A stretch of DNA of 61,510 nucleotides, counting the filler, from Dugesia japonica (Eukaryota), in NCBI GenBank assembly GCA_001938525.1. It is 4 parts of 4 records of this genome, joined end to end, with 100 filler letters (N's around TTAATTAATTAA, not from the genome) between each part and the next. Parts side by side here need not be neighbours in the genome. Positions count along the whole stretch, not along the records: positions 1 to 11,000 come from MQRL01637250.1; 3 more parts are not named here. One strand, given 5' to 3'. The notes beneath the pieces were generated by a model, which saw only the letters and a program-made list of their open reading frames with translations, searched no databases and was not told the DNA's origin. Position numbers and translations under genes: made by a program. This document shows positions 2,995-52,960 of this stretch, one piece after another; positions within the stretch are counted from its first letter, which is position 1; every line of letters starts with the position of its first letter.

Positions 2995-3023
2995 GGCCAA
3001 GAGAAAATTAATTTATTATTGAA

Positions 3024-3488
3024 ATGAATGAAATAGAAGATTGCTGCGGATCGACTGCTATTAGTCAGTCAGAATCGGATTCAAATCAAAATACCATGAT
3101 GATTAATAAAGTAAATGGACAAAAATATTCTACTGACAGACGATATGCTGACAGTATTTTCAAACCATTAAGATTGAGTATAAATGCCAGAGAAAGACGT
3201 CGAATGCATGATCTGAATGATGCATTAGATGAGCTGAGAAGTGTTATTCCGTATGCCCATAGTCCATCAGTGAGGAAATTGTCAAAAATTGCTACTTTAC
3301 TTCTAGCGAAAAACTATATTCTAATGCAAGCGAGTGCTTTAGAAGAATTGAGAAAAACAATAATGATAATGAATAACAGATACCAGTCAAGAAGTTATTT
3401 AAATAATATAAAATACGAACATTCTACTCAGAAAATTGCAAATAAAGAGTTACAATCGGATAATATATCTATTCAAAAACATCTCTGA
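3024..3488 (+). CDS. bhlhe22/23: bHLH transcription factor, BHLHE22/BHLHE23 (Olig/Beta3, Drosophila Oli-like) family
   Basis: [54 protein letters not shown] is the family signature. Uninterrupted ORF with AATAAA at 3545-3550. Confidence 0.95.
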
Positions 3489-4584
3489 CATCGATTTTTA
3501 TTACTATTATAATAATTATTAAGTGAAGTTTGTAATTTTATGAAAATAAATGTTTACTTGAAGATATCTGATTTATAGTTATTTTGTTGTTAAGAAATTG
3601 GTATTTAATGAATTTTTTTTGGAAATTTTTCATCAATTAATTTTGGTGTAATTGTTTTTTCAATAATAATCCTTGGATTTTTCTTAATTTTATATCTTAA
3701 TATCAAAGTTGATATTTGAAAACTAAAAATTCAAAATGGTTTGACAATAAATAAAAATGATAAATTAAAATTTTTATTTCCTCTTTTTTTACTGATAGAA
3801 GTGTTTTTTTNNNNNNNNNNNNNNNNNNNNNNNNNNNNNNNNNNNNNNNNNNNNNNNNNNNNNNNNNNNNNNNNNNNNNNNNNNNNNNNNNNNNNNNNNN
3901 NNNNNNNNNNNNNNNNNNNNNNNNNNNNNNNNNNNNNNNNNNNNNNNNNNNNNNNNNNNNNNNNNNNNNNNNNNNNNNNNNNNNNNNNNNNNNNNNNNNN
4001 NNNNNNNNNNNNNNNNNNNNNNNNNNNNNNNNNNNNNNNNNNNNNNNCAATTTAAATTTTTTTTATTTTAAAATAGTACAAATTGCACTTTTTACATATT
4101 ACGTTATATATTTTTGATTTTCCATGTACAAAAATCTCCCGGATAAGTACGCAAATAAAATGAAAAAAATTGGATCATTATTTCATTTAAAATAATTTAC
4201 AAATATTTTGTGCCTTGAATGATTTGATCGACATGTCATTTGCAAAAGATTTTGCTTTTGAAATAACTCGTATTGGTGGAACTGGTAGCTGAGCTCTTCA
4301 CTTCCCTTCAATTCACAGAAACAACTTGCCTTTAAGTTTTGAATACTGCAAAATGAAATGTTTTTCTTTTCGTTTTCTTCGACAAAAGAGCTGAGCCTTT
4401 TCCTACGATGTTTTTGTTTGACTGAAGTTTTCAGTAAGCTCATAATATGTTGCTAGAGAACGTTTACTTGGAAGATTTTGTGTGGTGAGCTATTCAATAA
4501 TTTCATTTTTTTCTGCTTCACTTAGGCGCTTCATTTGGAATAAAGATTTTTTACCAACCAAGTTATGTAAACAATAAACGTAAT

Positions 4585-4910
4585 TGTTTTACAATTGCAA
4601 TTATTGCGAGAATAATTGTTGGACATAACCATTGATCGTTTTTCAGAATTCATTTAAAATCAAAGCTTCGATCAAAATTTGTTTTTTTTTTGGTTTTTTG
4701 AGATTAATTCAAATTAATTTCAATTCGAATTAATCTCAGAAATTAATTAAAAAAATTAATTCATTAATTAAAAAAAAGTCAATTCAAAACGAAAACAAGG
4801 TCGAAATATTAATGAAAAAACATAAATTTTTATCGAAGCTTTTATTTTAAATAATCTCAAAAAAACAATAAAACAAATTTTGATCGAAGCTTTTATTTTA
4901 AATGAATAAA
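4585..4910. repeat. Inverted pair of the hammerhead-like repeat, upstream of the Penelope ORF
   Basis: 4585-4720 matches 160-275 in the same orientation. 4770-4910 is in the opposite orientation with a degenerate core (ACGAAAACAAGGTCGAAA). Confidence 0.55.
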
Positions 4911-5933
4911 CGTAATATCTGTACAGACGATTTGACTCTTTCGTTGATATTATGTGTAGACCAAAGAAGAATACACGTATCAGTATGATACTGACAAGTT
5001 ATTGCATCATATTGCACAATATTTAAAACAGAATTTATGTTAATTAAGAATTTTACCTCCACCGCCAATATGCGTACTTAACCGGGAAATTAATGCATTA
5101 CAAATAATTTCATATATATATATATATATATATATTCAAAAACATATTGAACAAATTGCTTTGATCTAAATAAAATGAGGAAACGCAATTTTTTAAAACA
5201 TTTATTCGTAAGACATTTTTCGGACAAATCTATGTTCGTAATCAGTTACTGTGGTTAAATAACAAGGAAATTGTTTATTTACTGGCCAATAAAACCTGTT
5301 ACGTTATCAATCCAATAAAATAAGATTAATTTTATAAGATAAACTTGCTAAACTTAAATTAATGTTTTATATTTCTGATTTTAATATTCAAAATACAATA
5401 ATAAATCATTCAAACTATACTGTAACTGATAATGAATTTGATCTCTTAAAACTTGGCCCATCACATTGTATTAAATATAAAATAGATGAACTTAATCTTA
5501 AGGCTCAAATTGAAGCGGCATTTTCTAAATTGCTCCTTTCAGAGAGTTCAAATAAACANGATTTGCTAAATAATAAGTTTAATATTCAATCCTCTGTTAC
5601 TAAATTTATTAACAAGAATAAACACCTTAATTTTAAGGATGAAAAAATATTGAAATGAATAAAAAAGAAAGATTTGAGAATTTGCAAATTTGATAAAGGT
5701 GTTGGAGATCCACCTGAGTCACTTAACAAAAAGTGGTTGGCTGAGGAAAAAACAGCCCTCAGGGGACCATTTCAAGAATTTAACCTAAAGCCCCTAGTTT
5801 AGGTATTCAGTGTAGATTGGTTGACTTCCTACTTCATGTGAGGTGCACACACGTACACCTTTAATTTGGGTTCATGATTTTCCCTTAAATAATTCAAACA
5901 AAACATCATTTCAAAGCATCTATTATTAAAACA

Positions 5934-6883
5934 TTATAATTCATCCAAAACGCCAGGGTCGAGCCACTGGGCTGGGTCAGTTAACAAGAAATTGAACGAA
6001 GCTAGGTCATCGTTGTCGTCNCATTGCTCCCAAGTGGNNNTCCCGCCAAGTTGGCGGGAGAGGTCAGAAATATATTGTTTTAAGAAGTCAATTTTCCTTT
6101 GCAAGGATTGTTTAATCTCCTCCTCGAGGGCTTTTGTTTGGATAGCTAGCTCACTTTGTTTTTTAACTATCATATCAAGTTTCTTCATCAGTTTATCTCG
6201 CTGAGTAAGATGATTTAGGAGTGCCCTGTCTGTTTTCCGTTTAAGGTGCCTTTCTACTAAGAGACGGCGTATTATTCTGTGACAACGTCGAATACTATTT
6301 GAGAAGATAATTTAAGGCACTGAAAGAAAATTATTAATGACATTCATATTTCGTTCATGATAAAACTAAATATAAAGACGGAAATAATTCAGACGAAATT
6401 AAACACAATAGACAAATATATTAGATTGCAGTAAAACAAGGTTTACGAACGAGAGGTCTGGACCCCTTTATCCACCATCAGTGATATTAGGGGCATGATT
6501 TTTCTCAAGTTCATAATATCACCCACCAGTTTATTCTCTCGGTCTTGGTTGGACCGGATAATATCGGTAAGGGNNNNNNNNNNNNNNNNNNNNNNNNNNN
6601 NNNNNNNNNNNNNNNNNNNNNNNNNNNNNNNNNNNNNNNNNNNNNNNNNNNNNNNNNNNNNNNNNNNNNNNNNNNNNNNNNNNNNNNTCGCTTGGCCAAC
6701 TTATAGAGATCCCAAGTGATCTCGGTTTCGTCACTAGAAGCCCTCACTTTCTTGGTCGGGGACGCAACGCGATTCAGTGAGGAGTGCACTAGAAGAAAAC
6801 GAAATTGAGTAAACACGATAAAAAGATTGGGTGAATAGCACCAACCACTTACACCTATGGTTACTCAGTGGACATTTATTCAT
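5934..6883 (-). pseudogene. Predicted 3-exon gene: NLS, basic region plus leucine-zipper-like coiled coil, acidic tail (one in-frame TAA, N gap)
   Basis: Exon 1 6883-6853; intron GTAAGT...TTCTAG 6852-6789 (64 nt, frame preserved); exon 2 6788-~6451; intron to TTTCAG 6320; exon 3 6319-5934, in frame with ORF 5934..6188. Confidence 0.55.
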
Positions 6884-6992
6884 CGTTAATGTTATTTTTA
6901 ATAAAAGGAAAATTTACGTGACAAAAAGATTTGGTTAAAATTCCGGAACAATTATGTATTTTATTGTAACACACCAAAAAAAATATAAATCA

Positions 6993-7340
6993 CTAATGAG
7001 TAGGTGCTGAATCAGCCACGGGTGCGGTATTCTCTGAATCTTCGCTACCCGAGGGTTCTCTTACATCCCATAATAAATTGTTAATAAATGCCTGCACCGC
7101 TGGGGATGTGGGTAAAGGTTGGTACTGAAACGACGTGGCAAGGGTTTGGGCAGGCCCCGTCCAGTTCTGGTAACTTTGTCGTTCACCAAAGTCTTGGATT
7201 CTGGCCACCATGGCCTCTATCGGAGGTAAGTTAGACCGATCGGATAAAATACCGGCATCCCGACGATGAGGGTTTCTATGTCGTCGGAAAATGATGCGAC
7301 GAGTCCTGCGGTCAATCACTCATTCCCATATTGATTCCAT
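6993..7340 (-). CDS. Small Arg-rich hypothetical protein within insertion (stop near N-terminus)
   Basis: MESIWE*VIDRRTRRIIFRRHRNPHRR...; AATAAA ~30 nt after the stop codon. Confidence 0.35.
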
Positions 7341-10300
7341 TCTGGAACATAAAATTGAATTTATCATAACATGCGAGTATATTCATCAGTAAACAGATCA
7401 GATAAAAATAAGAAATAAAAATTTAAATTAGACATTTGCTCAGGCTTGAATTTTTTATTTCAATTAAATTAATTGTATTATCGCAAAGACCCTTCTTCCT
7501 CATCTACATCTACTTTCGCTGTCAACGGAAACATCTCGGTGAAGCAAATCAAATCCGTTTCGTCAGGATGCAAAATCAGGCTGGGAGCTATGAGATGCCC
7601 GATTAATTGCCTTTTGCGTTATCGTTCGCGCTCTCGTTGAATGAATTGGAGAGTCGTTAAGAGTATATCCGACACGGAATATCTGAAACAGATTCACATT
7701 ACTATACCATCCGTAAGAAATCATTATTCCCACAAATTTTACTGGTAGAAGTAACACTCGTGACTTTACTATAATCGAAAATGCCAAGAATAAATTCACT
7801 CTATGGAGTTCTCACGAACCTGAATATAATAGTTAAGGTGAGTAGCAGGGATAGACGCAATAGCACTATTTCCTTTTTCCCATAATTTTAGTAAGATTTG
7901 CTTCCACAGGATCCAGCTAATAATGCTAGTCAATGGTATCAGTGGTGATGCCAGTGAAAGGAATAATATGAGTTTTAATATCACTAATAGTAAATGTTTT
8001 AACCATCAACTAATACACTAATAGTATATCCATCTATTATTATTTTAATATTTCTACTGAGGTTTATAATATCTATATATGATTATATATCATTATTATA
8101 ATGTTATTTTAATGTTATTATATGTTGTTAGATATAGTTATACTCATAATTATTTATAATTATTTTTATTCCTCTTATATTAGTTGTTAAAAAACAAATA
8201 CAAATATTTGGTCTTATAGTGTGATTTTAATTTTAATTAAAATTGGGCGTTACTGGTTACCTAGCACCTCGAAGGTCATATCTGGTTTGGTGGTAATAAT
8301 TCCGATACAAACTGGCGCGTAGAAAAATAACTGTGGGTGTGCTGGATAACAGACTAATGTTATTTTATAACGATGATTAAAATAATTTATCACTATCACT
8401 ATGGTAGTAATTTTTGTTAGTTAATATACCTACTATGTCGACTTAATTCACTGACGATGTCAGTCAGTCATTGCATATACATATTAATCTTCAGTTGAGA
8501 TTAGCTTTAACAAATTTACTCATTTTTTTCAGATAAAGCTTGTAGCTTGGTAGTAAATTGATCTATGCGTGATAACTAATCACGGTTTTTTTTCAACGAT
8601 TATAATGGTGGTAGAATTTCGTTGATAACTGTTCTCGGATAATTGTCAAATTCGCGGCTTTTGATTTGAATTTTTTAGTTATTTGTGGTTTGTAGTTGTT
8701 TTTTTGTAGTTGTTTCTGCTAATTCCATGATTCATTTTATAAGATTTTTCTTCACACCCCAACTTCTTTCATATTCGCTGGTTATTTTTAATTCGAGTTT
8801 ACTGCTTCCTATTGGTTCTACTGGCAATTTTCTGAAATTTTTTCAGAGTTTTAGAATTATAATTGGCGGTTATTTTTAAATCATCAGGTGAGGCTTAGTG
8901 CTTTGTTTTATTTTTNNNNNNNNNNNNNNNNNNNNNNNNNNNNNNNNNNNNNNNNNNNNNNNNNNNNNNNNNNNNNNNNNNNNNNNNNNNNNNNNNNNNN
9001 NNNNNNNNNNNNNNNNNNNNNNNNNNNNNNNNNNNNNNNNNNNNNNNNNNNNNNNNNNNNNNNNNNNNNNNNNNNNNNNNNNNNNNNNNNNNNNNNNNNN
9101 NNNNNNNNNNNNNNNNNNNNNNNNNNNNNNNNNNNNNNNNNAAATAGTTATTTTGATTAATGATTTTCTTGTTTTTATTATTGGTTTTGGTAATTTTCCT
9201 AATTCATGTGGTTGATGAACATCATCTTTATTCGCCCAATTTTTTCTATGGCTATCTTCTGAATTTTCATTCTTTTAAGGTTTATATGTAGCGTCTGGTT
9301 TATGACCGGGACTGTTTTTTTCTAACGGGCCCTTGTGACGCCCTTACTATTCTTCTTTACTGATTGGAGCTTATGNNNNNNNNNNNNNNNNNNNNNGTGT
9401 TTCGCCCCAACAAAGGCAATAGACTAATTATCATGAACAAGAATGATTATAACAGTAAAATGATGATGATATTGACTGCAAATAAATTTGAACGATTAAA
9501 CCTAAGAAAGAATATCGTACCATCCTCAATTAATGATGAAAATCGACTATTAAAATTTTAAATAAATTAAAAAAAGGAAATCACATAAATAGTTTAATTT
9601 CAAATTCTATATTATGCTATGGAAATCAGCCTGCAAAGCTTTATGGCTTACCAAAAGTACATAAACCTGACGTCCCTTTAAGACCCGTTTTATCAATGAT
9701 AAACACAGTGCAATACAAAGTTGCTAAAATACTTGAAAAAATGGTTAAACCATTAATATTTAATGAGACACTGTAAGGATACTTTTGAATTCATAAATTT
9801 CTTAAAAAATAAACAACTGATCTGAGATAAGGGAATTACGGTTTCATTTGATATAGTTAATCTGTTCACAAACGTTCCTATAAATGAGACTATCAATATA
9901 TGTGTTGATCTCTAGGAAAATCATTACGCAAATTTAAACTATAAATTTGATAAAACAGCTATGAAGGAACTGTTGAACTTTTGCTGTAAAGATGTTAATT
10001 CTTTATTTAATAATAATTGGTTCTCTCATAAAGATGGTGTTGCAATGGGTTCTCCGTTGGCACCGACATTAGCTTCATTATTTTTGTCTAAATTAGAGTC
10101 ACAAATTACTAATTTTTTCGTTACTCAACCCATAGAATACAAAATATACGTAGATGATATCTTCCTTATTTTTAAAGATCAAGATGATATACTACCTTTC
10201 CTTGAATATATGAACAGTCTTCATCAAAATATGAAATTCACTATAGAAGTTGAAAAAGAAGGTAAACTATCATTCTTAGATGTTCTTGTTTGTAGATAGG

Positions 10301-11000
10301 GTTGCAACTAAATACTTCACTTTATATAAAATCAACAGACACAGGAGTTTATACCACTCCTAAAAGGTTTTGTGATGATCGATATAAGAATGGATTAATA
10401 AAAGGTTTGGTTCATCGAGTGTGGTATATATCATCAAGCTAATGGATATTATCAAAAAATGATGTATAATAATATAAGGAGTACTCTAAAAAAACTGGGC
10501 TCAACATCAAATAATGACCAAGAAGAAAACATTAAAAATAATCAAGACAAATTAACTATAAAACTATTATTCTCGGAAGGATTAAAATCATTAAAATGCT
10601 CCCTCATGAAATTTTTTGATGATAATAAATTTAGATTTATTTTCACTTCAAAGAAAGCCTCAAGTTATTTAAGTAACAAATCTACTACACCAAAAGCTTT
10701 GATCGCTAACCTAGTATATCAATTTAATTGTAACGGGTGTGATGACACATACATTGGAGAGACAAAACATCATCTTCACACACGTGTTAGCGAGCATATG
10801 CAATTGAGTAGGAAAAGTTCGGTTTTAGATCATGCCTGTTGCTGCAAAAAATAGAAAAGGCAAAAAAAGAATTAATGAGATTACAGTTTTGAACAGCGGT
10901 TTTTGTGACTATTTTGAAAGAATGGTGTGTGAAGCTTTGATAATTGGGTTGCATAATCCGATTCATAACACTCAAATTGACACACATTCACTTTTAAGTT

Positions 11001-11100
11001 NNNNNNNNNNNNNNNNNNNNNNNNNNNNNNNNNNNNNNNNNNNNTTAATTAATTAANNNNNNNNNNNNNNNNNNNNNNNNNNNNNNNNNNNNNNNNNNNN
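11001..11100. other. Artificial contig linker
   Basis: 44 N + TTAATTAATTAA (stop codons in all six frames) + 44 N. Confidence 0.9.
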
Positions 11101-11235
11101 TATGATATGTAAAGGTTCCATAGTAATATGGTCAATTATGTTTAAAGGTTCCATAGTTATATGGTCTATGATATGTGAAGGTTCCATAGTAATATGGTCA
11201 GTTATGTTTAAAGGTTCCATAGTAATATGGTCAAA
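11101..11235. repeat. ~33-bp minisatellite, about 4 units
   Basis: Recurring AAGGTTCCATAGT(A/T)ATATGGTC. Confidence 0.9.
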
Positions 11236-11630: not shown

Positions 11631-11779
11631 AATAATTAATAATAATTAAAACTAATCTACATAATAAAAAGAAANNNNNNNNNNNNNNNNNNNNNNNNNN
11701 NNNNNNNNNNNNNNNNNNNNNNNNNNNNNNNNNTGCATAAATATATAAACTGTCCATAACATGCATAAATTTCTTCTAA

Positions 11780-12050
11780 TATTATCTTAAAAAATATTAA
11801 GACTGCCCATATCTTGTTATAAAATCTTAAAAAAATATCAAGACTGCCCATATCTTGTAATAATATCCTAAAATATCAAGACTGCCCATATCTTGTAATA
11901 ATATCCTAAAATATCAAGACTTCCCATATCTTGTTATAAAATCTTAAAAAAATATCAAGACTGCCCATATCTTGTAATAATATCCTAAAATATCAAGACT
12001 GCCCATACCATGCATAAATATAGAGACTGCCCATACCATGCATAAATAAA
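11780..12050. repeat. ~38-41-bp tandem repeat
   Basis: Recurring AAGACTGCCCATATCTTGT units. Confidence 0.9.
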
Positions 12051-12230: not shown

Positions 12231-13239
12231 CAAGACTCCCCTCTTNCCCGTTCGAAAAATATGAAACTTCACTCTTCCCAGTCAAATAATACTCAAAAAT
12301 ACATCATTTTTACAAAAATAACATTACTTTCATCAAATTCATCAATGTAAGCAAAATACAGCATTTTTACTTAAAATAAAGATTTCAAACCCTTATGACG
12401 TCACACATACCCGTCAGAAGAAATTCAAATAAATATCCAAAATTCCGATAATTAATTGTCTTTCCACACATACCACTCTTCCCGCCCAAAAACGTTTTTT
12501 AAAACTTTTATACTACTTACAAATATCAACCAATCAAATTAAAGGTCTTAAAATAAAAAATCAAAGCACATTCGACATACAAAATCTTTTCCATCACATT
12601 ACGTCTCCAACAAACTATCAACCAACAAATTCCAACAAACACATACAAACCTAAAGCCTTCCTAAAAAACAACCCGTGATAACTGCTTAAAAAAAAGTGT
12701 TGCAGTGCTCCACCATAGTTGTAGGACAAACCATCCATCCAATCTCATAAGTCATTTAGACAATTTATAGACAATATTTTTGTCCAACATCAGCCAAATC
12801 ATAAAAACTCCATAAAAATTATTTCCAAGATCTCCAGCTCCTCCTCCTCCTTTTTTTCACTCTTTCACACACACACAACCACACACACAAACTCAACTTG
12901 ACCTACTTTTTAAAAACCACCTTAACAACCCAAACACACATAAATTTTAAAATNAAAAATACACACACACACCACCAGAATGATAAAAATCTGATCCGAT
13001 CAAAAAAAAATTTGATCCGATCAAAATTTTTTGATCCTAAAAATCTTAGAAAAAAAAACCAACCCAAAAATCATGGTTAAAAAAACGCAGCTAAAGCGTA
13101 ATGTGTTTCCGAGCCCCGGGGGGGGGGTCCCCCGCGATAACTGCTTAAAATAAGTGTTGCAGTGCGCCACTATCCCCCTACTTACAGAATTTGTGAAGGA
13201 TGAAGAAATAAAAACATGTAGATTATCGAAAAGAGCTTT

Positions 13240-15420
13240 ATGGACTATTTAAAAACTATAAGTCCTCCATTCATCATATACGCTGATTTTGAATCAGTAT
13301 TATTACCGGATGAAGATTATCATAAAAAACATTTACCTATTACAGCTGGACTTTTGCTAGTTAACAATTACACTAAAGAAACAAAATATCAAGAATTTAT
13401 CGGAAACGACTGTTTTCAAGTTTTTGAAAGAGATTGAGAAAATCAATAAGAATATAGTATATTCATATTATATGAATAATGGAAAAAAGAAGATGAATAT
13501 AACTCTGGATCAAGAAATTTCTTTTGCTGCTACCAAAACATGTCATTTATGTGAGAAATTATTAATAAATCCTGTTAGAGACCACAATCATTTACAGGGG
13601 AATACATAGGTGCAGCATGCAACAGTTGCAATTTAAGCAGAAGAATGAATACGCAATTACCTGTTGTATTCAATAATTTAAGAGGATATGACATGCACCA
13701 TATTCTTAAGAATGGACTCTGTCAACTCCCACATTGGAACCTCAGCTGTATTCCCACTACAAGTGAAAAGTTATTGTGTCTTATTGCGTATCAAACGAAA
13801 TCACCTACCATTCGATTTATTGATTCATATTAATTTATCAATTCATCTATGGATTCAGCTGTTAAAATTATCAAAACAACTCCTTTAACCTTACAGGAAT
13901 TTATCGACAGCAAAATTATAATGACAAAAAGGATTTCCCCATAAAATCACGCTTTCAGTTTACAAGTCTTTGTTAATACAAAGGAAATACCACTAAAGTG
14001 GGATGGATGATGAAGAACATGAAAAATCTGTAGAGATGTGGAAAGTCTTAAAATGCAAAAACTTGCTGGACTATATGTAGGTGTACATGAAGTTGGACGT
14101 CTTTTTCCTAGCTGACGTTTTTCAGCAATTCCAAGCCAAGTCATTAGCTCACAACCGTCTGAAACACTTAAATTTCTTTTGCATTCCAGGTATGAGCTGG
14201 GCATCTGCTCTGATGACACCATGTTATATCAGATGAAAACACNNNNNNNNNNNNNNNNNNNNNNNNNNNNNNNNNNNNNNNNNNNNNNNNNNNNNNNNNN
14301 NNNNNNNNNNNNNNNNNNNNNNNNNNNNNNNNNNNNNNNNNNNNNNNNNNNNNNNNNNNNNNNNNNNNNNNNNNNNNNNNNNNNNNNNNNNNNNNNNNNN
14401 NNNNNNNNNNNNNNNNNNNNNNNNNNNNNNNNNNNNNNNNNNNNNNNNNNNNNNNNNNNNCAATGTGCTCCAGGAAGCAAGGTCAAGAAATTAATGTTGA
14501 CTCATTATTCAAAGTTCAATTACGTAGTGCACTGAAGATTACTGCAAATGTACTTGCAATTAAGAATGCAAGTTACAAATGTTCACATGGCAGTTAGATT
14601 TACACAAGATCATATTTTCAAGCAATATATCGATGAAAACATCAAATTAACGGCTGAAAGTGTGAATGAATTAGATAAAAATTACTATAAGCTCATGAAC
14701 TACAGCTTGTATGGCAAATCAGTTGAAAATCTGAAGAAACGAATAAACTTGAGAATATGTAATTCAGCAAAGAAGTTAGTGACCTATATATCAAAACCAT
14801 GGTTTACAAGAACCATTAAGATCGATATAGATTTAATAGCGGTACAATTAAATAAAGACATTGTGTGTCTCAAAAGACCGAGTTAATTAGGACTGACTGT
14901 TCTCGATGTAAGCAAATTACGAATGTATCGACTTCAATACATTGAGTTAGAGAAGTATAGGAAACAAGAAAATTGTGCGATAGCAATAGTAGCTGGGGAT
15001 GCCGATAGTTTTTTTCTTAGAGGTTAGGAACATTAAGTTGGAAAAGTTATTGTCACTGATGGTAAAAGACCGATTATTAGATACTTCAAATTACTTACCA
15101 GACCACACTCTTTATAACATGGAACTCAATTCGGTGGTAGGAAAGTTTAAGGACAAAAATAACGGAAGGAAATATAAAGAATGGGTTTTCCTGAGACTGA
15201 AGTGTTATGGCTTACTTAGCGAGAAGGAATCGATGAAGGCTAAGGGCATAACATTAAATGGTACGAACATAAATCATCAATCGTACTTTGATTGTTAGAA
15301 TAACAGACAATTTAGAATAAGAACGAAAAACTACCAGTTGTACAGTTTCTTAAAACCAAAAGTCGCATTAACTAATAATGATGACAAAAACATAAGCATA
15401 CCATACGGGCATTATTCTAT
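13240..15420 (+). pseudogene. Polinton/Maverick protein-primed family B DNA polymerase (degraded)
   Basis: YADFES; CHLC..VRDHNH..GAACNSCN (endonuclease VII-like); NLRGYDMH; IRFIDSY; KLMNYSLYGK; GDADS; GKFKD; KAKGI. Confidence 0.92.
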
Positions 15421-15927: not shown

Positions 15928-16892
15928 TTCCTCCACATGGCAGGGTAGATACAACATTACTAAGTTCACTCAATGTATTAGATTGAAATGTTGATAGTAA
16001 TTTTACATCGTTAGCTAGTAGTAACTGAGTAGTTTTCATACGAGCATTTAATAATTCATTAATAACAACATTTTTGGTGAATGTGTGATTGTCATTTAAA
16101 ATCGTTTCTTGATAAACAGATAAATAACTAATAGATTTCAGGAATTTTTAATAATTACAATCAATACAATAATTTGATAGAACCTTATATTTTAATGAAA
16201 TTTTAGGAATTGTTTTAAAAATAAATAATATTTTAATTTTACTTAAAAAATAAATTAATATTTTCAAAGACATTTAATTGAAAAAAGTTTAAAAACCATT
16301 CTCGCTGATAAAAGCCTTAAAATTATTTATATTTTTGAAATTTTCAATTCTCTATCTTTTTTAATTACTTTTAAAAATTAGAATAAATGTAATTTTAACA
16401 TTTTTTAGAGAAAAGATTAATTGTAGTTTTGATATTTTAAAAAAAATAAAAGTATTTTATTCAAAATGTTTAAATATATTACAAATTTTATGTTGATTAA
16501 AACACTTTTAAAAAAAAATAATGTTAAATATAACTCAAATTTTAGTACATTTTAATGATTTTGACTTTATTATAAAATTCGATCCAAAACTTTATTAATT
16601 CATATTTTTTATGTAAAATTATCGTAATTTTTAACAAATTCTAAATTTAATATTAACATTTTCTAATTTTGTCATTTATTGAGTTTAGAAATAGAATTTT
16701 CTAATCTTATAATTCTACACAATTATGAAATAAAGCTTTATAAAATTTCAATTTATGCTTTAATAAGTTTTATTTTACTTTATTTTTATAATTATTATTT
16801 GTAATTTAATTTAATTTAAATTTATTATTTTTGATTATATTTAAAACAAAATAATAAATTTGTTTTAATTCCAACAATAATTTGATCTTAAA

Positions 16893-18431
16893 ATGGAAAA
16901 ATTTTGTACAATATGTTTTGAAGTGGTTAATGAAAATTACGCAACAGTAAATGAGTGTAATCATGTGTTTTGTTTTAATTGTTTGAATAATATCATAATT
17001 ACACATAATCCCAAATGTCCATTGGANNNNNNNNNNNNNNNNNNNNNNNNNNNNNNNNNNNNNNNNNNNNNNNNNNNNNNNNNNNNNNNNNNNNNNNNNN
17101 NNNNNNNNNNNNNNNNNNNNNNNNNNNNNNNNNNNNNNNNNNNNNNNNNNNNNNNNNNNNNNNNNNNNNNNNNNNNNNNNNNNNNNNNNNNNNNNNNNNN
17201 NNNNNNNNNNNNNNNNNNNNNNNNNNNNNNNNNNNNTTCAACAAAGGAGAACGAAAATACAGATGTATTGAAACTTTATCGATCAATCAGAATAATATAT
17301 GGCTTAGCATTCAGACCGATAGCAAATCTTGAAGAGATATTCCAGTCCGAAGAAACTTCTCCGCTTTTAGTAAATTTAAAATACTGGGGCAGATTAACTT
17401 CTAGTGTCGATTATTTAAATAACCGTTTACTATTAGGCGGATTTAGAACTACAAATAATTGGTTACATGAAAATAAAGATAAAATCAAAATGGAAATTCA
17501 AAAACGGAAAGAAATATTTCCAATTTTAAATGCATTTATTATTTCCTATCCAGTTAAGAATCAGTTTATCTATAAATCTCTCTGCCCTAATAATGACACG
17601 AGAAACATAAATCAATGTTTGATTTGTTTAAATGAAGTAGATAAAAATATTTATGGAAAATTTAAAACTTGCAATCATAAATTATGTTTGAAATGTGTTG
17701 AAAAATATTGGATTTCTCATGGAAACTGTCCATTGGATTCTGAGAGAAGTGAAGAATTTAATATAAAGATTCATGACAATCATGATTCGCGAGAACAAAT
17801 CGATATGGCTCATGATTATTTATTGGGAAATTGTGAAAAAATTATTTATAGAAATATTCACGACTTAATCAATGATAAAATCAGATTAATCGATAAAATA
17901 TTGAACAACAAAGAAGATTTCTTTAAATATGTAAAGCTATTGATTTGTTCATATCGAAACATCCGAGAAAAAGAAAATGGTCAAAGTGAAATAAATTATT
18001 TTGCAGACTTCAAATGGAATCCTGAAATATCGTGTTTGTGGGAACAATATAAATTGTGTCTAATAAAAGAAGATCCTTTTCATCACTTCACCAGGAGATT
18101 TTGTTTACATTATTCTGAAAATACTTATCAAAATATTTTTGAATTGTTTATTAATATTAACGAAAAATATTTTTATATATTTTTGGATTTTGATTTTTAT
18201 TTTAAATTGGAATCTCAGCACAGTTGCAAAAATAGAATAAGAGGAATATTCGAGTTGAAAAAGTTTATTGGATATATTTATATGAACATCGATTGGAGCG
18301 TTTTAACGGAAACTGAATCTTATCATCAATCAATGAAATCATTCATCGATTTCTTAGGAAGTGTTAGTGAAATATTATCCAATGATGATTTGATCAGAAA
18401 TGATTTGTTATATGATTTATTATTATTGTAA
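16893..18431 (+). CDS. Intronless protein with two C3HC4-type RING fingers (putative E3 ubiquitin ligase)
   Basis: CTIC..CNHVFCFNC..CPL and CLIC..CNHKLCLKC..CPLD. About 1.2 kb is stop-free after the N gap; frame across the gap is unverified. AATAAA at ~18440. Confidence 0.8.
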   Translation: MEKFCTICFEVVNENYATVNECNHVFCFNCLNNIIITHNPKCPLXXXXXXXXXXXXXXXXXXXXXXXXXXXXXXXXXXXXXXXXXXXXXXXXXXXXXXXXXXXXXXXXXXXXXXXSTKENENTDVLKLYRSIRIIYGLAFRPIANLEEIFQSEETSPLLVNLKYWGRLTSSVDYLNNRLLLGGFRTTNNWLHENKDKIKMEIQKRKEIFPILNAFIISYPVKNQFIYKSLCPNNDTRNINQCLICLNEVDKNIYGKFKTCNHKLCLKCVEKYWISHGNCPLDSERSEEFNIKIHDNHDSREQIDMAHDYLLGNCEKIIYRNIHDLINDKIRLIDKILNNKEDFFKYVKLLICSYRNIREKENGQSEINYFADFKWNPEISCLWEQYKLCLIKEDPFHHFTRRFCLHYSENTYQNIFELFININEKYFYIFLDFDFYFKLESQHSCKNRIRGIFELKKFIGYIYMNIDWSVLTETESYHQSMKSFIDFLGSVSEILSNDDLIRNDLLYDLLLL

Positions 18432-18485: not shown

Positions 18486-18551
18486 TTTCATTAAAATAAG
18501 ATAAGGCTTCGATAAGGCTTTTGATCGAAGCCTTATCTTATTTTAATGAAA
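18486..18551. repeat. Perfect 28-bp inverted repeat with 10-nt spacer, at the end of a dispersed repeat copy
   Basis: TTTCATTAAAATAAGATAAGGCTTCGAT / ATCGAAGCCTTATCTTATTTTAATGAAA. Confidence 0.9.
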
Positions 18552-19294
18552 TCTCAAATCCGATCAATGGTTAAGTCCAACAATTATTCTCACAATAATT
18601 GTAATTATAAAATATTAAAATTTTGTTTAATAAATTTCTCTTATTGCTTTGTTGTTTTTTTTTGGTTTTTCTTAAATTAGTTGCGCGGAAAATATGGAAA
18701 ACTTCATTGCAATTTTGATAATTTAAAATTAATATTGACATTTTACCAATTTCGTTACAGTCACGATGAATTTTACAGAAATTTAAAATATTGAAAATTA
18801 TTAATTGACATCATTTTATAAATTAATAATAAATTATAGTAAAATTAACATTTAATTACCAACATAAATGAAAGATCCACCGATTGCAGCAGAACAACTG
18901 ACAATACGATATCGATCTATCGCAATTGATTCAACTAAGTCATAACGATAAAAAAAAATCTTCTTTCAATATAGCTAAAAATAATTCAGAATTTAAATCC
19001 AAATTTTCAATTTTTAGAAAATAATATAATTTTTCAGGACGAAATATTTAAGTTATTTCCACAAAATATGTGTTGGAAAGAAATAATAAATAGATCGACA
19101 CCATTCGATAAACAAACAAATTTTTTATGAACAGTAGATGTAAAAATGCGTTCGCCTGTCACGGTTGTACCATTTTGTCACGTACACGTATAATAGTGCA
19201 TTGTGCAAATAAAAAAACAATATTGCAGGCGAACGCATTTTTACATCTACTTATTGGTTTGATTTTTTAATTTTTTATTAAATTATTATTTTAC

Positions 19295-20375
19295 AAATTA
19301 ATTACCTTTTGTAATTTATGGTGATTTTGAAAGTTGAACTAATTCCAACACAAATAAACCAAAACCTTTATCACTTGGAATTTACATAAAAAGTAAATAT
19401 CAACATTTAATTAAAAATGAATATAAAGTATTTTATGGAGAAAACATACACGAACAGTTTTTTGGATTTTTAGAAGAAATTACCAAAGAAACTATCATTT
19501 CCATATGAATATGTAAAAGGAGAAAATATTAATCAAGTGATTCAATTATTAAAATCAAATAATATTCCAACAAGAGAAGATTTCAATAATAAACTAAAAC
19601 AACAAAAAATAAGTGATCAAGAATATAATGAATTTATACAAGATTTTAATCAATTTGGGAATTTATTTGATTATATGATGTATTACATGAAATTAGATGT
19701 AATTATTTTAGCAGAATTCTTTGAAAACTTTAGAGAGATTTGTCTAAATAATTATCAAATAGATCCTAGTTATTGTTATTCTGCACCAGGATNNNNNNNN
19801 NNNNNATGAACAAAATTTACACAAGTAAAATTAAAATATGCAAAAGAAGATACATACAACACATTTTTAAAAATAGAAAGAGGGGTTAGAGATGGTTTCT
19901 CAGGTTTTTATGGAGAAAGACAAGTATTTATTCATAATAAAAATGAAAATCCTAGTTATAAAATATTAAATAAAGCTCAATTTGAAGATTAAATAAAATT
20001 AATGAAAGAAGGAAAAACAATTCCAGAAGAATATTTTGAGGATACATTTATAAAATATTTAGATGAAAATTCATTATACGCATCTTGCATAACTAAGCCT
20101 TTACCAACAAGTAGAATTAATGAATCTGATAACTTAGAATATAAAAAATCAACAGATAAAATAAATTACATTTTTGAAGTTGATTCATGAAAAAACAAAA
20201 TATTTTCCTTTAGCACCAGATAGAATAAATATAACTGAAGAAATGTTAGGACCATATCAACTAGGTTTTAATAAGAAATTATCTAAGAAAAATGTAAAAT
20301 TAACTTTAAACCAATTTGACAAAGAAAATTATATAGTTTTAGGAAGTACATTAAATTTGTTTTTAAGTTTTCAAT
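19295..20375 (+). pseudogene. pPolB fragments (second Polinton family; internal deletion and C-terminal truncation)
   Basis: LPFVIYGDFES; FPYEY; YMKLDVIILAEFFENFR..IDPSYCYSAPG; YLDENSLY; FPLAPD. Confidence 0.9.
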
Positions 20376-20379
20376 TGCT

Positions 20380-20534
20380 TTAATCGTAGGCTGTTGTTGT
20401 GTAGTTAAAGAATCTTGTAAAGTTTTTGATTCAATTACTCCTGTAGTAAATAAATTATCATAGTCATCTTGAGCTTTAATTAATTCTTTCAAAAGTTTTA
20501 TTCTTTCTGTCATTTGTTCACCATCCATTTTCAT
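20380..20534 (-). pseudogene. Truncated Polinton accessory ORF
   Basis: Overlaps the stop of the upstream ORF; QQQPTIKAIE fuses into the antisense of polB at a deletion junction. Confidence 0.4.
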
Positions 20535-20997
20535 AAAGTTTTAAATACAAACCACCACCTTTTACTTTAACTAGTATTCTATTTTTAAAGTTTTTAGTAA
20601 TCATCTTCAACTCTGAGTTTGGTAAACTATTTTTTAAATATTTATGAATTGCGCTTCCTTGATAAGGTTTTAAATATAATCCACTTCCAGTTTTATTTTC
20701 ATGTGCTTCTTCTTTTTTAATTTTATTTTCTAAACCTTTTTTCTGTAATTCAACTAACTCATTTTCTTTTTGTTTTTTAATTGCATCTCTGGAATTACTT
20801 ACTGTACTTGCTACCACGGTAGCAGCTATTATCCCAGGAATTAAAGGAAATAATCCACCTTCATGTTCTTTTGATTTCTTTTTTATTTCTTCTTTAACTT
20901 GTTTAGCAATCCAATAGTTTTTACCATTAATTTTTACAGATTTACATTTATTTGAATTTACAAAATCAATTAATTCTTGTTCTGATATTGAAGACAT
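20518..20997 (-). CDS. Polinton virion core/membrane-active-like protein (adenovirus pX-like hydrophobic segment)
   Basis: EGGLFPLIPGIIAA followed by two G(S/G)GLYLK repeats; ORF intact. Confidence 0.6.
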   Translation of the reverse strand: MSSISEQELIDFVNSNKCKSVKINGKNYWIAKQVKEEIKKKSKEHEGGLFPLIPGIIAATVVASTVSNSRDAIKKQKENELVELQKKGLENKIKKEEAHENKTGSGLYLKPYQGSAIHKYLKNSLPNSELKMITKNFKNRILVKVKGGGLYLKLYENGW

Positions 20998-21282
20998 TTT
21001 GTTAAGCTAAATATTTTTATTAATAAAAATGAAATATGCTGATAAGGAAAGTATAATGGAGAAAGAAATAACATATTTTTTCAAGATATAAATAATTTAG
21101 AAATTTTTATCGAAGATTATAAATTAGTAATTTTTTTAAACATATATATGAATATATTAAAAGATTTAAAAATGAAGATTTGAATTTAAAGATGAAATAA
21201 GATTTAAAGGTTAAAAGATGATGTAAGATTTGGAAATAAAGTTGAATTTGAAAATATAATTGAAACTGAAACTCCAAAAGGT

Positions 21283-21783
21283 ATGTATGTATTTAAACCT
21301 GAATCTAGATCAATACTTGAATATAATGTTAAACGTGAAATTCCCAAAGAACTCGAAAATATGGATAAAGTATTTATTGAATATAAACTAGAACAATCAT
21401 TGCCTTCAACAAGTATTCAATCTAGAAATAAAGATTTCAAAGAATTATTTTTAAAATCCTTCAAAAGTATGGAAAATGATTTACCTGAGATTATACCTAT
21501 TGAAAAGAATACATGTATAGATTCATTAATTATTAATATTAAAACATTAGATTCCAATTTAATTAATTTTAAAAATAAATCAAATGATGATTATTATAAT
21601 TTAAGAAGAGACTATAAAATTTTAGCTAAAGGAGTTGAAAGAAAAAAACATGAACTTTTAAAAATATTACAAAATAATGATAATAAAAATTCTTATCTAT
21701 ATATTACTAAATTATTGAAATATTATAAGTTATGTAAACATTTCCCAATTTTATTTAATTGTACATTATCTTGGCATAGATAA
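21283..21783 (+). CDS. Polinton hypothetical protein (probably extends past the stop)
   Basis: 166-aa ORF inside the element; no motif recognised. Confidence 0.45.
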   Translation: MYVFKPESRSILEYNVKREIPKELENMDKVFIEYKLEQSLPSTSIQSRNKDFKELFLKSFKSMENDLPEIIPIEKNTCIDSLIINIKTLDSNLINFKNKSNDDYYNLRRDYKILAKGVERKKHELLKILQNNDNKNSYLYITKLLKYYKLCKHFPILFNCTLSWHR

Positions 21784-24157: not shown

Positions 24158-24540
24158 TTAGTTCGTTCCTCCACCTAAAATAATTTTACCTTTCATTGCT
24201 AATTTTAATAAACCTCTTTGTATTTTTTCAGAAGTAGTTGGGTTTTCAATTTTGTTCAAATCATGAATTAAATTTACATTAGCTAAATGTCTATCTCTTA
24301 AATCTTCTGATTTATAAAATAAATCATGTTTTAAAGCCGCTTCATCAACTCTATTAATAGGTTCTTCTACTGGTTTTGGATTATTATTTTCATCTAATCT
24401 TATATCTAATCTTGTTCCAGGGCCAGTATAATTATGTTTAAACAAATTTCTTTCTCCTGGATACTTTTCCCAAGTAAATGATTTTAAAATTGCTGAAATT
24501 AATTTAGAAGATTGAAGATCTCACCCTTCAGTCTTTTTAC
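24158..24540 (-). CDS. Parvovirus VP1u-type phospholipase A2 (adintovirus PLA2X-like)
   Basis: YPGERNLFKHNYTGPGT (Ca2+ loop) ... VDEAALKHDLFY (catalytic HDxxY); 5' end degraded. Confidence 0.9.
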
Positions 24541-30055: not shown

Positions 30056-30155
30056 NNNNNNNNNNNNNNNNNNNNNNNNNNNNNNNNNNNNNNNNNNNNT
30101 TAATTAATTAANNNNNNNNNNNNNNNNNNNNNNNNNNNNNNNNNNNNNNNNNNNN
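30056..30155. other. Artificial contig linker
   Basis: N-TTAATTAATTAA-N, 100 bp. Confidence 0.9.
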
Positions 30156-35928: not shown

Positions 35929-38200
35929 GGTTTACTATAATAAGGGCACCTTCAAAAGGGAGACATTAAATTGACATTGACCGAACAATAATAAATATTA
36001 TATTATTTTATTATATTATATAATATTATTTGAAAATATTATAATATTATTATATATTGAAATATTATATAAATTTTAAACTACGTACATTTAAAGCATT
36101 TCGATCGATATAATACTAATTAAATAGAAGTATTAGGATAAATTATTATAAGCAATTACTTTATAAAGCAGTTAATTAAAGACATTTAAGGTTACAAATT
36201 TTATGAGTAGAAATTAATGATATTTATCTGTATATATACACTAGAATGGAAAGAAAAAAATCGAAACCCATATGACAATTGCAACGTAGAAATGGTATTG
36301 GAGTTTGTTAGAAGCAACAAATATGCTTCTTATTTAGTTAAAAATGGCTACACATTTCGTAAAGAAAAAATAATAAAATATAAACAGATTTGGAGATGCA
36401 CAGATTATCGCAAAGCTAAATGTAGGTCACGCTGCCATACAAGGAATGGTGTTTTTACATAGGAGCCAACTGAGCACAATCATTTGCCTGATATAGCAAA
36501 AGCGGAAGTAAGGAAAACCATGTCTTATCTCAAAGTTCGGGCTACAACAACAGAAGCAACTCATCAGATTGCATCAAATACATCGGTTGGATTAACTGCT
36601 GCAGTGTCAGGTCAATTGCCAAATGTTGTCGATTTGAAACAAACGATTAATTTATGTGAAATATTTAAACAAATTGAAATTATGACGATATTAAAATATT
36701 ATCTTAATTAGGGCGTTGAAAAATAAATTAAACGTCTTTTAAAAATTAAGACTTTTGTCTTTTTCTTAGTTTTTGTTTATTTCAATTTGTAGAGTTTTTA
36801 ATAAGAAAGTTTATTAAAATTATAAAATTCTTTTCACTTTTAATTTCATGTTAAACAAAAATCTACTCAATAATTATTTGAAATTGTTGAAAATACATTT
36901 AAAAGTGCTGGTCAATTATGCAATCTCATCAACAAATTAAATTAATAAAAAACATCCAATAAAGATGTTTTATAAAGATGTTTTATCGACGCGTTCGTCA
37001 TCATGTGCAGGCACCACGGCCAAATCCAACCAGTTTACATGAACTTACATTGCCTGCTGAATATACAACAACGTTAAAAGGAGATAGTTTTTTGCTGCAC
37101 GATAGTGGTCCTGGTTTGCAACGATTCTTGATTTTTTCTAAAACTCGCAATCTGGTACTTTTGTCTAGATGTCCAAACTGGTATGCGGACGGAGCTTTTA
37201 AAACAGCACCTCCTTTATTCCACCAAATCTACAGTATTCATGTATTGAAACAGGGTATTATAATTCNTGTTGTTTTTGTGCTGATGAGTGATAGTAGCAC
37301 AAATAGTTATGTTCGTGTTCTAACAGAAATCAAAAATTTTCGTGCTGATTTAAATCCAAAGACATTGATAACAGACTTTGAGCATGCTACACTTCTTGCA
37401 TTTAAAAGAGTTTTCCCAAATGCTGTGCAACAGGGTTGCTTATTCCATTTAAGTCAATGTGTGTGGCATCGTTTACAGCAGATACCAAATTCCTAAGCCA
37501 GATACGCATCAGAGGCGCAATTTGCGCTTGAAATAAGTCACTTGGTTGCACTCGCATTTGTTCCTGTTGATAACGTTGTAAATGAATTTGAAGCACTCCT
37601 GGATTGGGAGTTCTACACTGATAACGAAGTTGCCATTCGTGAACTGATTAATTATTTCGAAGACACCTGGATTGGCCGACCAAATAGACTAGAAAAATCC
37701 ATTGATGTCGTTTTCCCACTAACGTTATGGAACGTGCACAATGCAGCGCAACAGAATCTGCCAAAAACCAACAATGCTGTGGAAGGATGCCACAGAGGAT
37801 TTGCACAAATTTTCGGATCTTACCACCCGACGATATGGAAATTTATAGATGGATTAAAAAAGGAGTAAAGCCTCAATGAATTGAAGCTTGAACAGTATGT
37901 GGCTGGTCAAGAACCTCCTGCTGGAAGGAAAAAATACAAGGATTCATCAAATCGCATAAAAACAGTTGCTGATTATAACAATCGACCAATTATTGAATAC
38001 TTGCTTGGGATTGCCCATAAAAGGAATCTACAAGCTTAAAGCCTATGTTAGCAGAATTTGACGCATAATAATAAAATACATTCTATAAAATACTATACTT
38101 CATTTTATGTTTATTGGAATGCACCTTTTTTAATGTCGCCGTTTTAATGAGCGCTCTTTTTAATTTTGTCCTTTTAAAAGGGCCCTTATTATAGTATACC
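35929..38200 (+). mobile_element. Mutator-like (MULE) transposon with FLYWCH-type transposase
   Basis: TIRs GGT(T/A)TACTATAATAAGGGC; flanks AAGATTAGG / AAGATTGNN, consistent with a ~9-bp TSD. Confidence 0.9.
36292..38040 (+). pseudogene. FLYWCH + MULE DDE transposase (stops, ~340-bp insertion)
   Basis: NGYTF..WRC..CRSR..HNH; WYADGAFK; TDFE; GCLFHLSQ; PKTNNAVEG. Confidence 0.92.
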
Positions 38201-50850: not shown

Positions 50851-51339
50851 TAAAATTACCATTAAAATGAGTAGATACATGTTATAATGACAAGCTTAGT
50901 ATCGTTGGACTCGTAAAAGCTTGAATACATAACTGCTATCTCAGAATTGTAACATAATGTTTTAGTCGCGGTGTTTTAAAGATTTAAAGTGTAAATGTCG
51001 CGCACAGAATCACATTTTTATCTTATATTAGACATTCTCTATTAGATTTGTTAAAGCTGAGGATTTAATGTCTTCCAAATATTGAATTAGAGAGATACCG
51101 TAAGGAGAAGAATTTTTCTAAACGTAATGTTAGATTCCGAGGGTGAAGATATCTAACTAAGATTTTCTGATTGAAAATTAATTTTTAAAAATGCACGTAG
51201 GTAATAGTTATTTATTTATAAACTAATTTTATAATAAATAACAATAATTTAATTAAGAAAATGATGTATTAATAAAAATCTTTATTGAATATAACAAAAT
51301 AATTACACTTGTATAAATATCATATTCATATAAATGAAA

Positions 51340-52080
51340 ATAGAATAGATTAAGTTTTGTGATATTCCACATTTCCACCGCTTTTTTGTTTTCATCTTCA
51401 TTAACTTCATCCCATCTCGGTGGCATGGATTTTGTATCTTCCAACACTTGCAAACTTGTAGCAAGATTATACGGGAAAATACCCTTTGTTGTATTTATAT
51501 TATTATTTTTAAATTCATTTACAGTTAATGGTGTTGATCCTAGAGATTTAACTGTTGCATCTAGCGAGGAATTTATAAATTGATAACTATCAATAAACTT
51601 GATAGTCGCAGTTTTACTCTGATGTACAATCAGACATAGAAATTGTTCATTAGTTGTCGGAATACAACTCAGATTCCATTTTGGAAATTTTCTTAATCCG
51701 TATTTTAGAACATGATGAAGATCACACCCTTTTAAATTGTGAAATACAACTGGTAGCTGTATTAATTATCGTCTGCTTAAATTACATTTTGAACAGGCTG
51801 TTCCTTTAAATTCACCTGTAAAATGGTCATGATCTCGAACGGGGTCGATTATCTCCTTTTTACACAAATAACAAATTNNNNNNNNNNNNNNNNNNNNNNN
51901 NNNNNNNNNNNNNNNNNNNNNNNNNNNNNNNNNNNNNNNNNNNNNNNNNNNNNNNNNNNNNNNNNNNNNNNNNNNNNNNNNNNNNNNNNAAAAATCATAT
52001 ATCCAATCATTTCCAACAAACTGGCTGTATTTCGTTTCATTGGAAAAATTATTTACCAACAACAGTCCAGCTGAAACCTC
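51340..52080 (-). pseudogene. pPolB N-terminal/exonuclease fragment, same family as 13240-15420
   Basis: AGLLLVNN; CYLC..VRDHDH.TG..GTACSKCN; FHNLKGCDLH; IKFIDSYQF; KGIFPY. Confidence 0.9.
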
Positions 52081-52710
52081 ATCTTTAACAAATTCGACAT
52101 TGATGCCAAATTGTATTTTAGCATCACGTAGCTCCTCTATTGCTCTGTTTAGTTCCGCAATCAATGAATCGGGTAAAATTATTTCCTTCGTATTCTATGT
52201 TGATATCAATCACCACATTGTTTATCGATCCACCGACAATACATTCATCTGTCACTTCATCCAAATAAACAACGTGATTATCTTCTCCATCGTCCGTCTT
52301 TGCATCATACTCGTACAACACTTCAAAATTGTTTCAATCTTCTACGTCATTCTCTTCTTCACTATCTTCAATTATAATAACATCCATAATTTCTTCACTA
52401 TCCTCAATTAATATCGGTATCTCTTCATCATCTTCAATCAATATTGGTTCCTCTTGCTTTGGTTCCCCATCTTCAATAATTATTGTTTCCTCTTCATTCG
52501 ATTTAATTTTCTTTGATGCAGGACCTGGTATTTCATTACTTAATATTATTTTTAATAGTGTTTTCTTATTTTTAGTAAACTGTGCAAGGTGGTCTGCATG
52601 CAAGCTATACAATCTTTTATATTTTCCTTATTCTATAGACCGACAAGTCGGACATATGTAGTACTTTTTCCCATAAACCTTTTGCCCATAATAGATTTTC
52701 ATTATTTTAT
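52080..52710 (-). pseudogene. Acidic, zinc-finger-like ORF upstream of pPolB
   Basis: YICPTC...HADH; repeated I(L/I)IED units. Confidence 0.5.
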
Positions 52711-52860: not shown

Positions 52861-52960
52861 NNNNNNNNNNNNNNNNNNNNNNNNNNNNNNNNNNNNNNNN
52901 NNNNTTAATTAATTAANNNNNNNNNNNNNNNNNNNNNNNNNNNNNNNNNNNNNNNNNNNN
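52861..52960. other. Artificial contig linker
   Basis: N-TTAATTAATTAA-N, 100 bp. Confidence 0.9.

Follow-up and report, generated by a model that had tools for sequence, protein, structure and literature searches.

What kind of mobile element enters a genome through integrase-type ends, shows no readable pol, and carries a small gene with a homologue elsewhere? The question is raised by an insertion at positions 5700-9412 (3713 nt, including 365 N) of a 61,510-nt stretch of the planarian Dugesia japonica (GCA_001938525.1), a stretch that we call the window and that consists of four joined parts, the insertion lying in the part taken from MQRL01637250.1. We report here that the insertion shows integrase-type entry, no readable pol or second long terminal repeat (LTR), and one conserved gene. 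The minus strand is probably the one on which it reads. The interpretation that we favour, with somewhat more confidence than doubt, is that a large Gypsy-type element with two or three small accessory genes in its LTR left behind this solo LTR, which has since decayed. A first-pass annotation of this DNA had proposed a long solo LTR or a mobile cassette with genes of its own; integrase-type insertion and a long solo LTR with genes of its own fit all of the tests that we ran, and one gene has a distant homologue, whereas the copy turns out to be decayed and only one of the four segments proposed as coding is shown to be a gene.

Boundaries and anatomy of the insertion

Both boundaries of the insertion can be placed to the nucleotide. 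The exact TGTTGG...CCAACA ends with an AAGG target-site duplication (TSD), as originally called, are upheld: AAGG stands exactly on either side of the insertion, at 5696-5699 and 9413-9416 on the plus strand, with GATAAAGG meeting TGTTGGAG at 5700 and CCCCAACA meeting AAGGCAAT at 9412. The window has 89 TGTTGG/CCAACA pairs at a spacing of 0.2-20 kb, and a 4-bp duplication flanks this pair alone. The left terminus TGTTGGA (5700-5706) and the right terminus CCCAACA (9406-9412), both given on the plus strand, match exactly the LTR integrase consensus TGTTRNR...YNYAACA as it is described in the accessible part of its source (PMC3601003), and the 4 bp of AAGG fall inside the 3-6-bp TSD range of Gypsy-type elements. 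The terminal motif alone is no proof of a boundary, since looser motifs yield many chance pairs: 28 of 2635 TGTTRNR/YNYAACA pairs in the window carry a 4-bp duplication, and so do 261 window pairs when any inverted TG..CA ends of 6 bp are admitted.

What establishes 5700-9412 as a true insertion is that it splits the DKG motif of a host Penelope-like element, a motif given as diagnostic for such elements (PMC8557442). Our junction call rests on this motif and on the reading frames either side of it. Translated on its own, the left flank ends in KKDLRICKFDK, and the right flank restarts with GNRLIIMNKNDY (GNRLIIM), so that the separate translations bear out the restored Penelope FDKGNR codons on which the initial call had relied. 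The left part of the host element (5338-5699, plus strand) ends at the DKG motif; the decayed right part (9413-10990, plus strand) holds a reverse transcriptase (RT; Pfam RVT_1, 9919-10296, E 1.7e-9) and a weak GIY-YIG domain (10405-10851, E 0.014, below cut-off). Furthermore, the insertion differs from its surroundings in composition: GC makes up 35% of it, but 23% and 29% of the two flanks. The insertion is thus real, and it lies within a Penelope-like element.

The first-pass annotation had seen no internal direct LTR pair, long terminal inverted repeat (TIR), or RT, integrase or transposase motif between these ends, and the readable sequence agrees. The end-to-end similarity scores of the insertion, 36 and 42, compare with window background means of 38-40 and are reached by 29-63% of background window segments. 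The two ends agree at 9 of their first 16 nt and at 16 of 83 nt further in, and past about 8 nt they are unrelated in both orientations. Neither terminal 16-mer is found again inside the insertion at up to four mismatches, and neither of the two internal purine tracts is followed by TG. An LTR pair is excluded in the readable insertion sequence, and the lack of any TIR or internal repeat is the anatomy of a solo LTR. Two candidates that had passed simple shuffles were rejected, namely a 343-bp LTR pair built from a 24-nt 79% repeat, which equalled the window background, and a subterminal inverted motif, which scored as background against real window segments. Six-frame scans of the readable sequence gave no HHCC, YxDD, CCHC or protease motif; the sole motif-like match was a GPF tripeptide close to the left terminus. 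No Pfam family rose above cut-off in the nine pieces of the insertion that were scanned, and the scans gave no Rfam match or tRNA. No primer-binding site, polypurine tract, gag or pol was found in the readable insertion sequence, leaving 361 nt unread in gaps. Self-BLAST and tblastn gave no further copy of the insertion in the window.

Those unread positions form three N gaps, of 114, 226 and 21 nt, the last covering positions 17-37 of the right end; if sized correctly, they are too small for an integrase. They matter for a reading to which we give little credence, in which the assembly disguises a full-length element, its two LTRs having been collapsed or its pol lying in an under-sized gap. 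The scaffold is indeed rich in gaps, three of them within the element. The inner gaps are individually sized, however, and do not hold the linker (44 N, TTAATTAATTAA, 44 N) that stands at three other joins in the window (11001-11100, 30056-30155 and 52861-52960), which we read as an assembler's mark for joins of unknown size. The LTRs of a copy so decayed should also have diverged too far to collapse, and the finding on gene content holds either way.

A gene and candidate genes on the minus strand

ORF C (open reading frame; 6993-7340, minus strand) spans 115 codons, interrupted by a single in-frame stop, at codon 7. We searched 1.84 billion representative proteins by HMMER with the 107 residues after the stop as query and obtained five matches, including an unnamed 94-aa singleton protein on a 512-bp ENA contig (P0002, E 3e-9); the other four were dropped as artefacts, being tandem-repeat proteins aligned through several short stretches. 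ORF C and P0002 align without gaps, with 29 of 81 residues identical (36%), and the first eight residues of ORF C, which lay outside the query, also align with P0002 from the same methionine, at a score reached by a fraction of 3.4e-5 of the 116,134 8-mers of the window. Because this gapless alignment starts from the same methionine and extends beyond the query, ORF C is, on the comparison with P0002, a real gene, conserved as a stand-alone ORF and now broken. So far as these searches define it, the pair constitutes a family of small proteins that has no counterpart in Pfam, PHROG, NCBIfam or the PDB.

Other approaches to ORF C added little. The remaining homologue searches gave no match; P0002 and the two-row alignment of ORF C with it retrieved nothing from viral contigs, prokaryote genomes, phages or the PDB, and a 23-nt pattern from ORF C hit 0 viral contigs. 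The structural model of P0002 was poor (predicted local distance difference test, pLDDT, 52), with no Foldseek match at E 0.001 and a best VIA Z of 3.9, and is uninformative on the fold. None of the tests run predicts a function for ORF C. Its N-terminus has a WW-like look, for which Pfam gives no support.

Gene D, further along the same strand, is probably a gene with a spliced last exon. Its likely last exon (5934-6320, minus strand) begins at an acceptor at 6320, meets a stop or frameshift near 6320-6295, and then continues for 124 open codons. The acceptor is the strongest on the minus strand and is equalled in 9 of 5000 local shuffles. A second acceptor, 2 nt upstream of ORF C, ranks among the two best on this strand (matched in 64 of 5000), and both of these acceptors lie no more than 12 nt ahead of the open frame of ORF C or gene D. 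An open frame as long as the 124-codon end arose in 16 of 500 shuffles; the open end is weakly periodic (p 0.037), and its heptad score was reached by 3 of 990 pieces in a tiling that included the gene D region. This end is predicted to form one 87-residue helix (pLDDT 81), for which the PDB gave no match, and its charge is distributed unevenly: the first 40 residues are basic (12 K/R), the middle is mixed, and the final 36 are acidic (9 D/E, K/R being absent). Weak family matches on gene D were set aside as coiled-coil noise far below cut-off. Upstream of a possible second intron (6321-6446, minus strand), T-rich and with a weak donor, a middle piece (6446-6571, minus strand) keeps 42 codons open past the 114-N gap, across which the frame is not fixed. 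A tentative start (6688-6883, minus strand) would consist of an ATG at 6883 within a 31-nt exon and a candidate 64-nt GT..AG intron (6852-6789) that joins this ATG in phase to a frame open as far as the gap.

The two remaining segments of the four originally proposed fare less well. Segment B (7478-8006, minus strand), which contains several stops and changes of frame and may be a gene that has decayed, is marginal as a coding segment: 8 of 200 shuffles were as open, and its periodicity is unremarkable (p 0.34). Segment A (8575-9270, minus strand), which is 49% A on that strand and contains short repeats and the 226-N gap, shows no coding signal (openness p 0.87, periodicity p 0.35) and is probably non-coding sequence of the U3 type (U3 being the unique 3' region of an LTR). 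These composition tests are insensitive, since they also missed ORF C (length p 0.11, periodicity p 0.44), so B or A may still be heavily decayed genes; both were scanned against family libraries alone, the large homologue searches having covered C and D. As the first-pass annotation had noted, AATAAA follows two of the segments, 18 nt after B and 27 nt downstream of C. The hexamer occurs eight times on the minus strand of the element and five times on the plus strand, and this frequency on both strands makes its presence after B and C not telling by itself. Strong plus-strand splice donors and acceptors at 7226, 7838, 8888 and 8532 accompany no ORF and may bear on the orientation of the LTR.

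A proposed solo LTR with genes, and its alternatives

How could a single LTR with such genes come to lie here? A full-length element would have integrated here through a retroviral-type integrase, and recombination between its LTRs would then have removed gag-pol, leaving one 3.7-kb LTR between the duplications. That LTR would lie on the minus strand, with U3 running from 9412 and a polyadenylation signal near 5865. In the candidate signal (5840-5865, minus strand), an ATTAAA precedes a GT-rich stretch at 166 nt from the 5700 end, and the last 270 nt of the 9412 end contain no such combination; this placement is what would put the LTR on the minus strand. Such hexamers are common in the element. 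The genes would sit in U3, and their expression would run from the 3' LTR through spliced RNAs that use the acceptors ahead of the C and D exons. From its basic, heptad and acidic layout, gene D would encode a regulator acting in the nucleus, perhaps a transactivator that dimerises.

Several known elements resemble the insertion in part. According to the accessible portions of the papers cited, Ogre LTRs measure 1.9-6.5 kb (PMC6431247), and Retrosat2 has an LTR of more than 3.2 kb with 429 solo LTRs (PMC3485330); like the insertion, the solo LTRs of both have TG..CA ends with short inverted signals, a short duplication, multi-kb length and, so far as the insertion is readable, no pol. The planarian giant Gypsy elements Burro/GYPSM1 resemble it in implied LTR size and in having accessory ORFs. 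The interior of Burro is reported to reach 25 kb and the whole element to exceed 30 kb, from which LTRs of about 2.5 kb or more follow by arithmetic, and decaying Burro fragments are reported in Dugesia japonica itself (PMC6431247). The Burro domains BIR, ankyrin, MATH and BCL2 were not found in the insertion by Pfam. The available text of PMC11410931, PMC8532177 and PMC12801592 provides no LTR anatomy. In the supplement of PMC8532177, the opposite strand of the probe for GLT2, another planarian element, resembles by eye the AT-rich end of an intron and, after it, an open frame that is helical and charged; we take this as a lead.

In Ogre and Retrosat2, so far as the accessible accounts go, the extra ORFs are internal and not in the LTR, whereas the two ends of our insertion enclose at least one conserved gene. 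This difference lends some substance to a reading that we regard as unlikely, in which the insertion is a rearranged remnant, either with a shorter LTR or as an internally deleted provirus; an integrase would have made its ends, but its genes would derive from the accessory region inside the element or from an insertion nested later, and the LTR would be gene-free. Accessory ORFs are internal in Burro and Retrosat2, as they are in the bdelloid LTR elements described in the part of PMC5408684 available. The insertion is also patchy in composition, and Polinton fragments with small genes occur in the same window. On the other side, neither terminus restarts internally, no purine tract is followed by TG, no internal TIR exceeds background, and tblastn detects no similarity to other window sequence, although the 226-N gap could conceal a junction.

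A gene-bearing LTR can be compared with those of retroviruses. Accessory genes lie in the retroviral U3 as sag in mouse mammary tumour virus (MMTV), nef in human immunodeficiency virus (HIV) and bel in foamy virus, one gene each, in LTRs of about 0.6-1.8 kb. In all three the accessory gene lies in or overlaps the LTR, is spliced and ends at the LTR polyadenylation signal, as proposed here. The insertion differs in having two or three genes, one of them possibly multi-exon, within 3.7 kb, and no sequence similarity to sag, nef or bel was found. Our literature searches listed no title on a gene-bearing LTR in an invertebrate Gypsy element; Repbase Reports and, for planarians, the genome paper of 2018 with its supplements lay outside those searches and may already describe such LTRs.

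Several points weigh against the solo-LTR interpretation. The insertion is a single decayed copy, and no paired copy around gag-pol was seen in the window, which is what the search covered. The sole homologue of ORF C lies on a short contig without context, so nothing ties ORF C to a retroelement. For gene D, the searches gave no homologue, including two that yielded 8 and 166 candidates, and an ATG-intron model comparable to its 64-nt intron appeared in 58 of 600 shuffles, which makes that intron weak. No acceptor comparable to those of C and D stands ahead of A, B or the ATG of gene D; the splice scores are hand-set and untrained; and the plus-strand donors at 7226 and 7838 are stronger than any on the minus strand, so that orientation is unsettled. 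In addition, a sense-strand intron, if real, would tend to be spliced from the genomic RNA, and AATAAA after B and C, if a real signal, would tend to shorten it, which tells against the expression route set out above. This conflict may reflect chance, a plus-strand LTR with antisense genes, or movement at the DNA level.

Movement at the DNA level would suit a non-autonomous cassette with ends of about 7 bp, mobilised by a helper integrase of Ginger- or Polinton-like type, whose genes contain introns and have polyadenylation signals of their own. Neither introns nor separate AATAAA signals pose a problem for a DNA element, and in a distant lineage ORF C stands alone as an ORF. TGTNR and 4-bp duplications are common to Ginger ends and the insertion (PMC2836005), and Ginger1 and Ginger2 are like it in their TGT..ACA ends and 2.6-7 kb lengths. 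The Ginger comparison fails elsewhere: in the consulted sections of the same paper, Ginger1 has TIRs of 40-270 bp and a CCGG or CCGT duplication, and Ginger2/TDD has TIRs of 50-180 bp and an RTATAY target preference, while the insertion has an AAGG target and no long TIR or transposase that we could find. The Ginger-type origin raised at first pass is not borne out on these grounds. A solo LTR, moreover, accounts for the ends without a new mechanism, and we judge the DNA cassette quite unlikely.

Other integrase-related groups were also compared. GingerRoot/IS3EU and Polinton elements, described with 6-bp duplications, TA..TA or AG..TC ends and long TIRs in the available parts of PMC6839031 and PMC10045372, were rejected, the insertion having a 4-bp duplication, other ends and no long TIR. 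IS481EU combines TGT..ACA ends, a 4-bp duplication and a TIR of less than 50 bp with a DDE transposase and a parabasalid host. The insertion fits it in ends and duplication, and its own two ends match each other at 9 of 16 terminal nucleotides, but it has no transposase and its host looks animal. A GC content of 26% and an animal-type basic helix-loop-helix (bHLH) gene are in keeping with planarian (Dugesiidae) sequence. A broader proposition also appears unlikely to us, namely that an animal genome harbours a family of integrase-mobilised gene cassettes without long TIRs or paired LTRs, or of giant LTRs acting in that way, with spliced genes of their own that encode a conserved protein and a basic-zipper-acidic regulator.

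The surrounding window and what a gene-bearing LTR would mean

Beyond the insertion and its host element, the window contains a bHLH ORF and several mobile-element remains. The bHLH ORF (3012-3488, plus strand; Pfam HLH, E 8.5e-18) is intact, has a single exon and lies about 1.9 kb upstream of the Penelope-like element; its best PDB match is NeuroD1, and we presume it to be of the Olig/bHLHe22 type. A 516-codon ORF at 16881-18431 (plus strand), which runs over a 210-N gap, has two RING-like cysteine clusters, the second matching Pfam zf-RING_2 at cut-off, and may be a host gene or Polinton or viral cargo. Decayed Polinton-like pieces lie at 13200-15400, 19474-19809, 20518-21783, 24158-24520 and 51253-52194; they include a protein-primed PolB (E 1.2e-4) and a PLA2-like domain (E 4e-7), and 13563-14043 and 51365-51851 are inverted copies, 68% similar. 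A Mutator-like (MULE) transposase at 36963-37868 (plus strand, E 2.7e-14) is split by one stop. After the Penelope end in the window come a tandem array at 11101-11234 (period 33/66) and, at 11769-12021, a degenerate one of about 40 nt. A short repeat family resembling miniature inverted-repeat transposable elements has several copies (154-317, 1958-2035, 4560-4907 and 18519-18636), with an inverted pair at 4648-4907.

LTRs are usually regarded as regulatory, mostly non-coding DNA. If the insertion is indeed a gene-bearing solo LTR, each replication of its element would copy a multi-kb LTR together with several accessory genes, and each LTR-LTR recombination would leave that LTR behind. Such LTRs would scatter complete small genes through the genome, and an animal Gypsy lineage would in this respect resemble the complex retroviruses.

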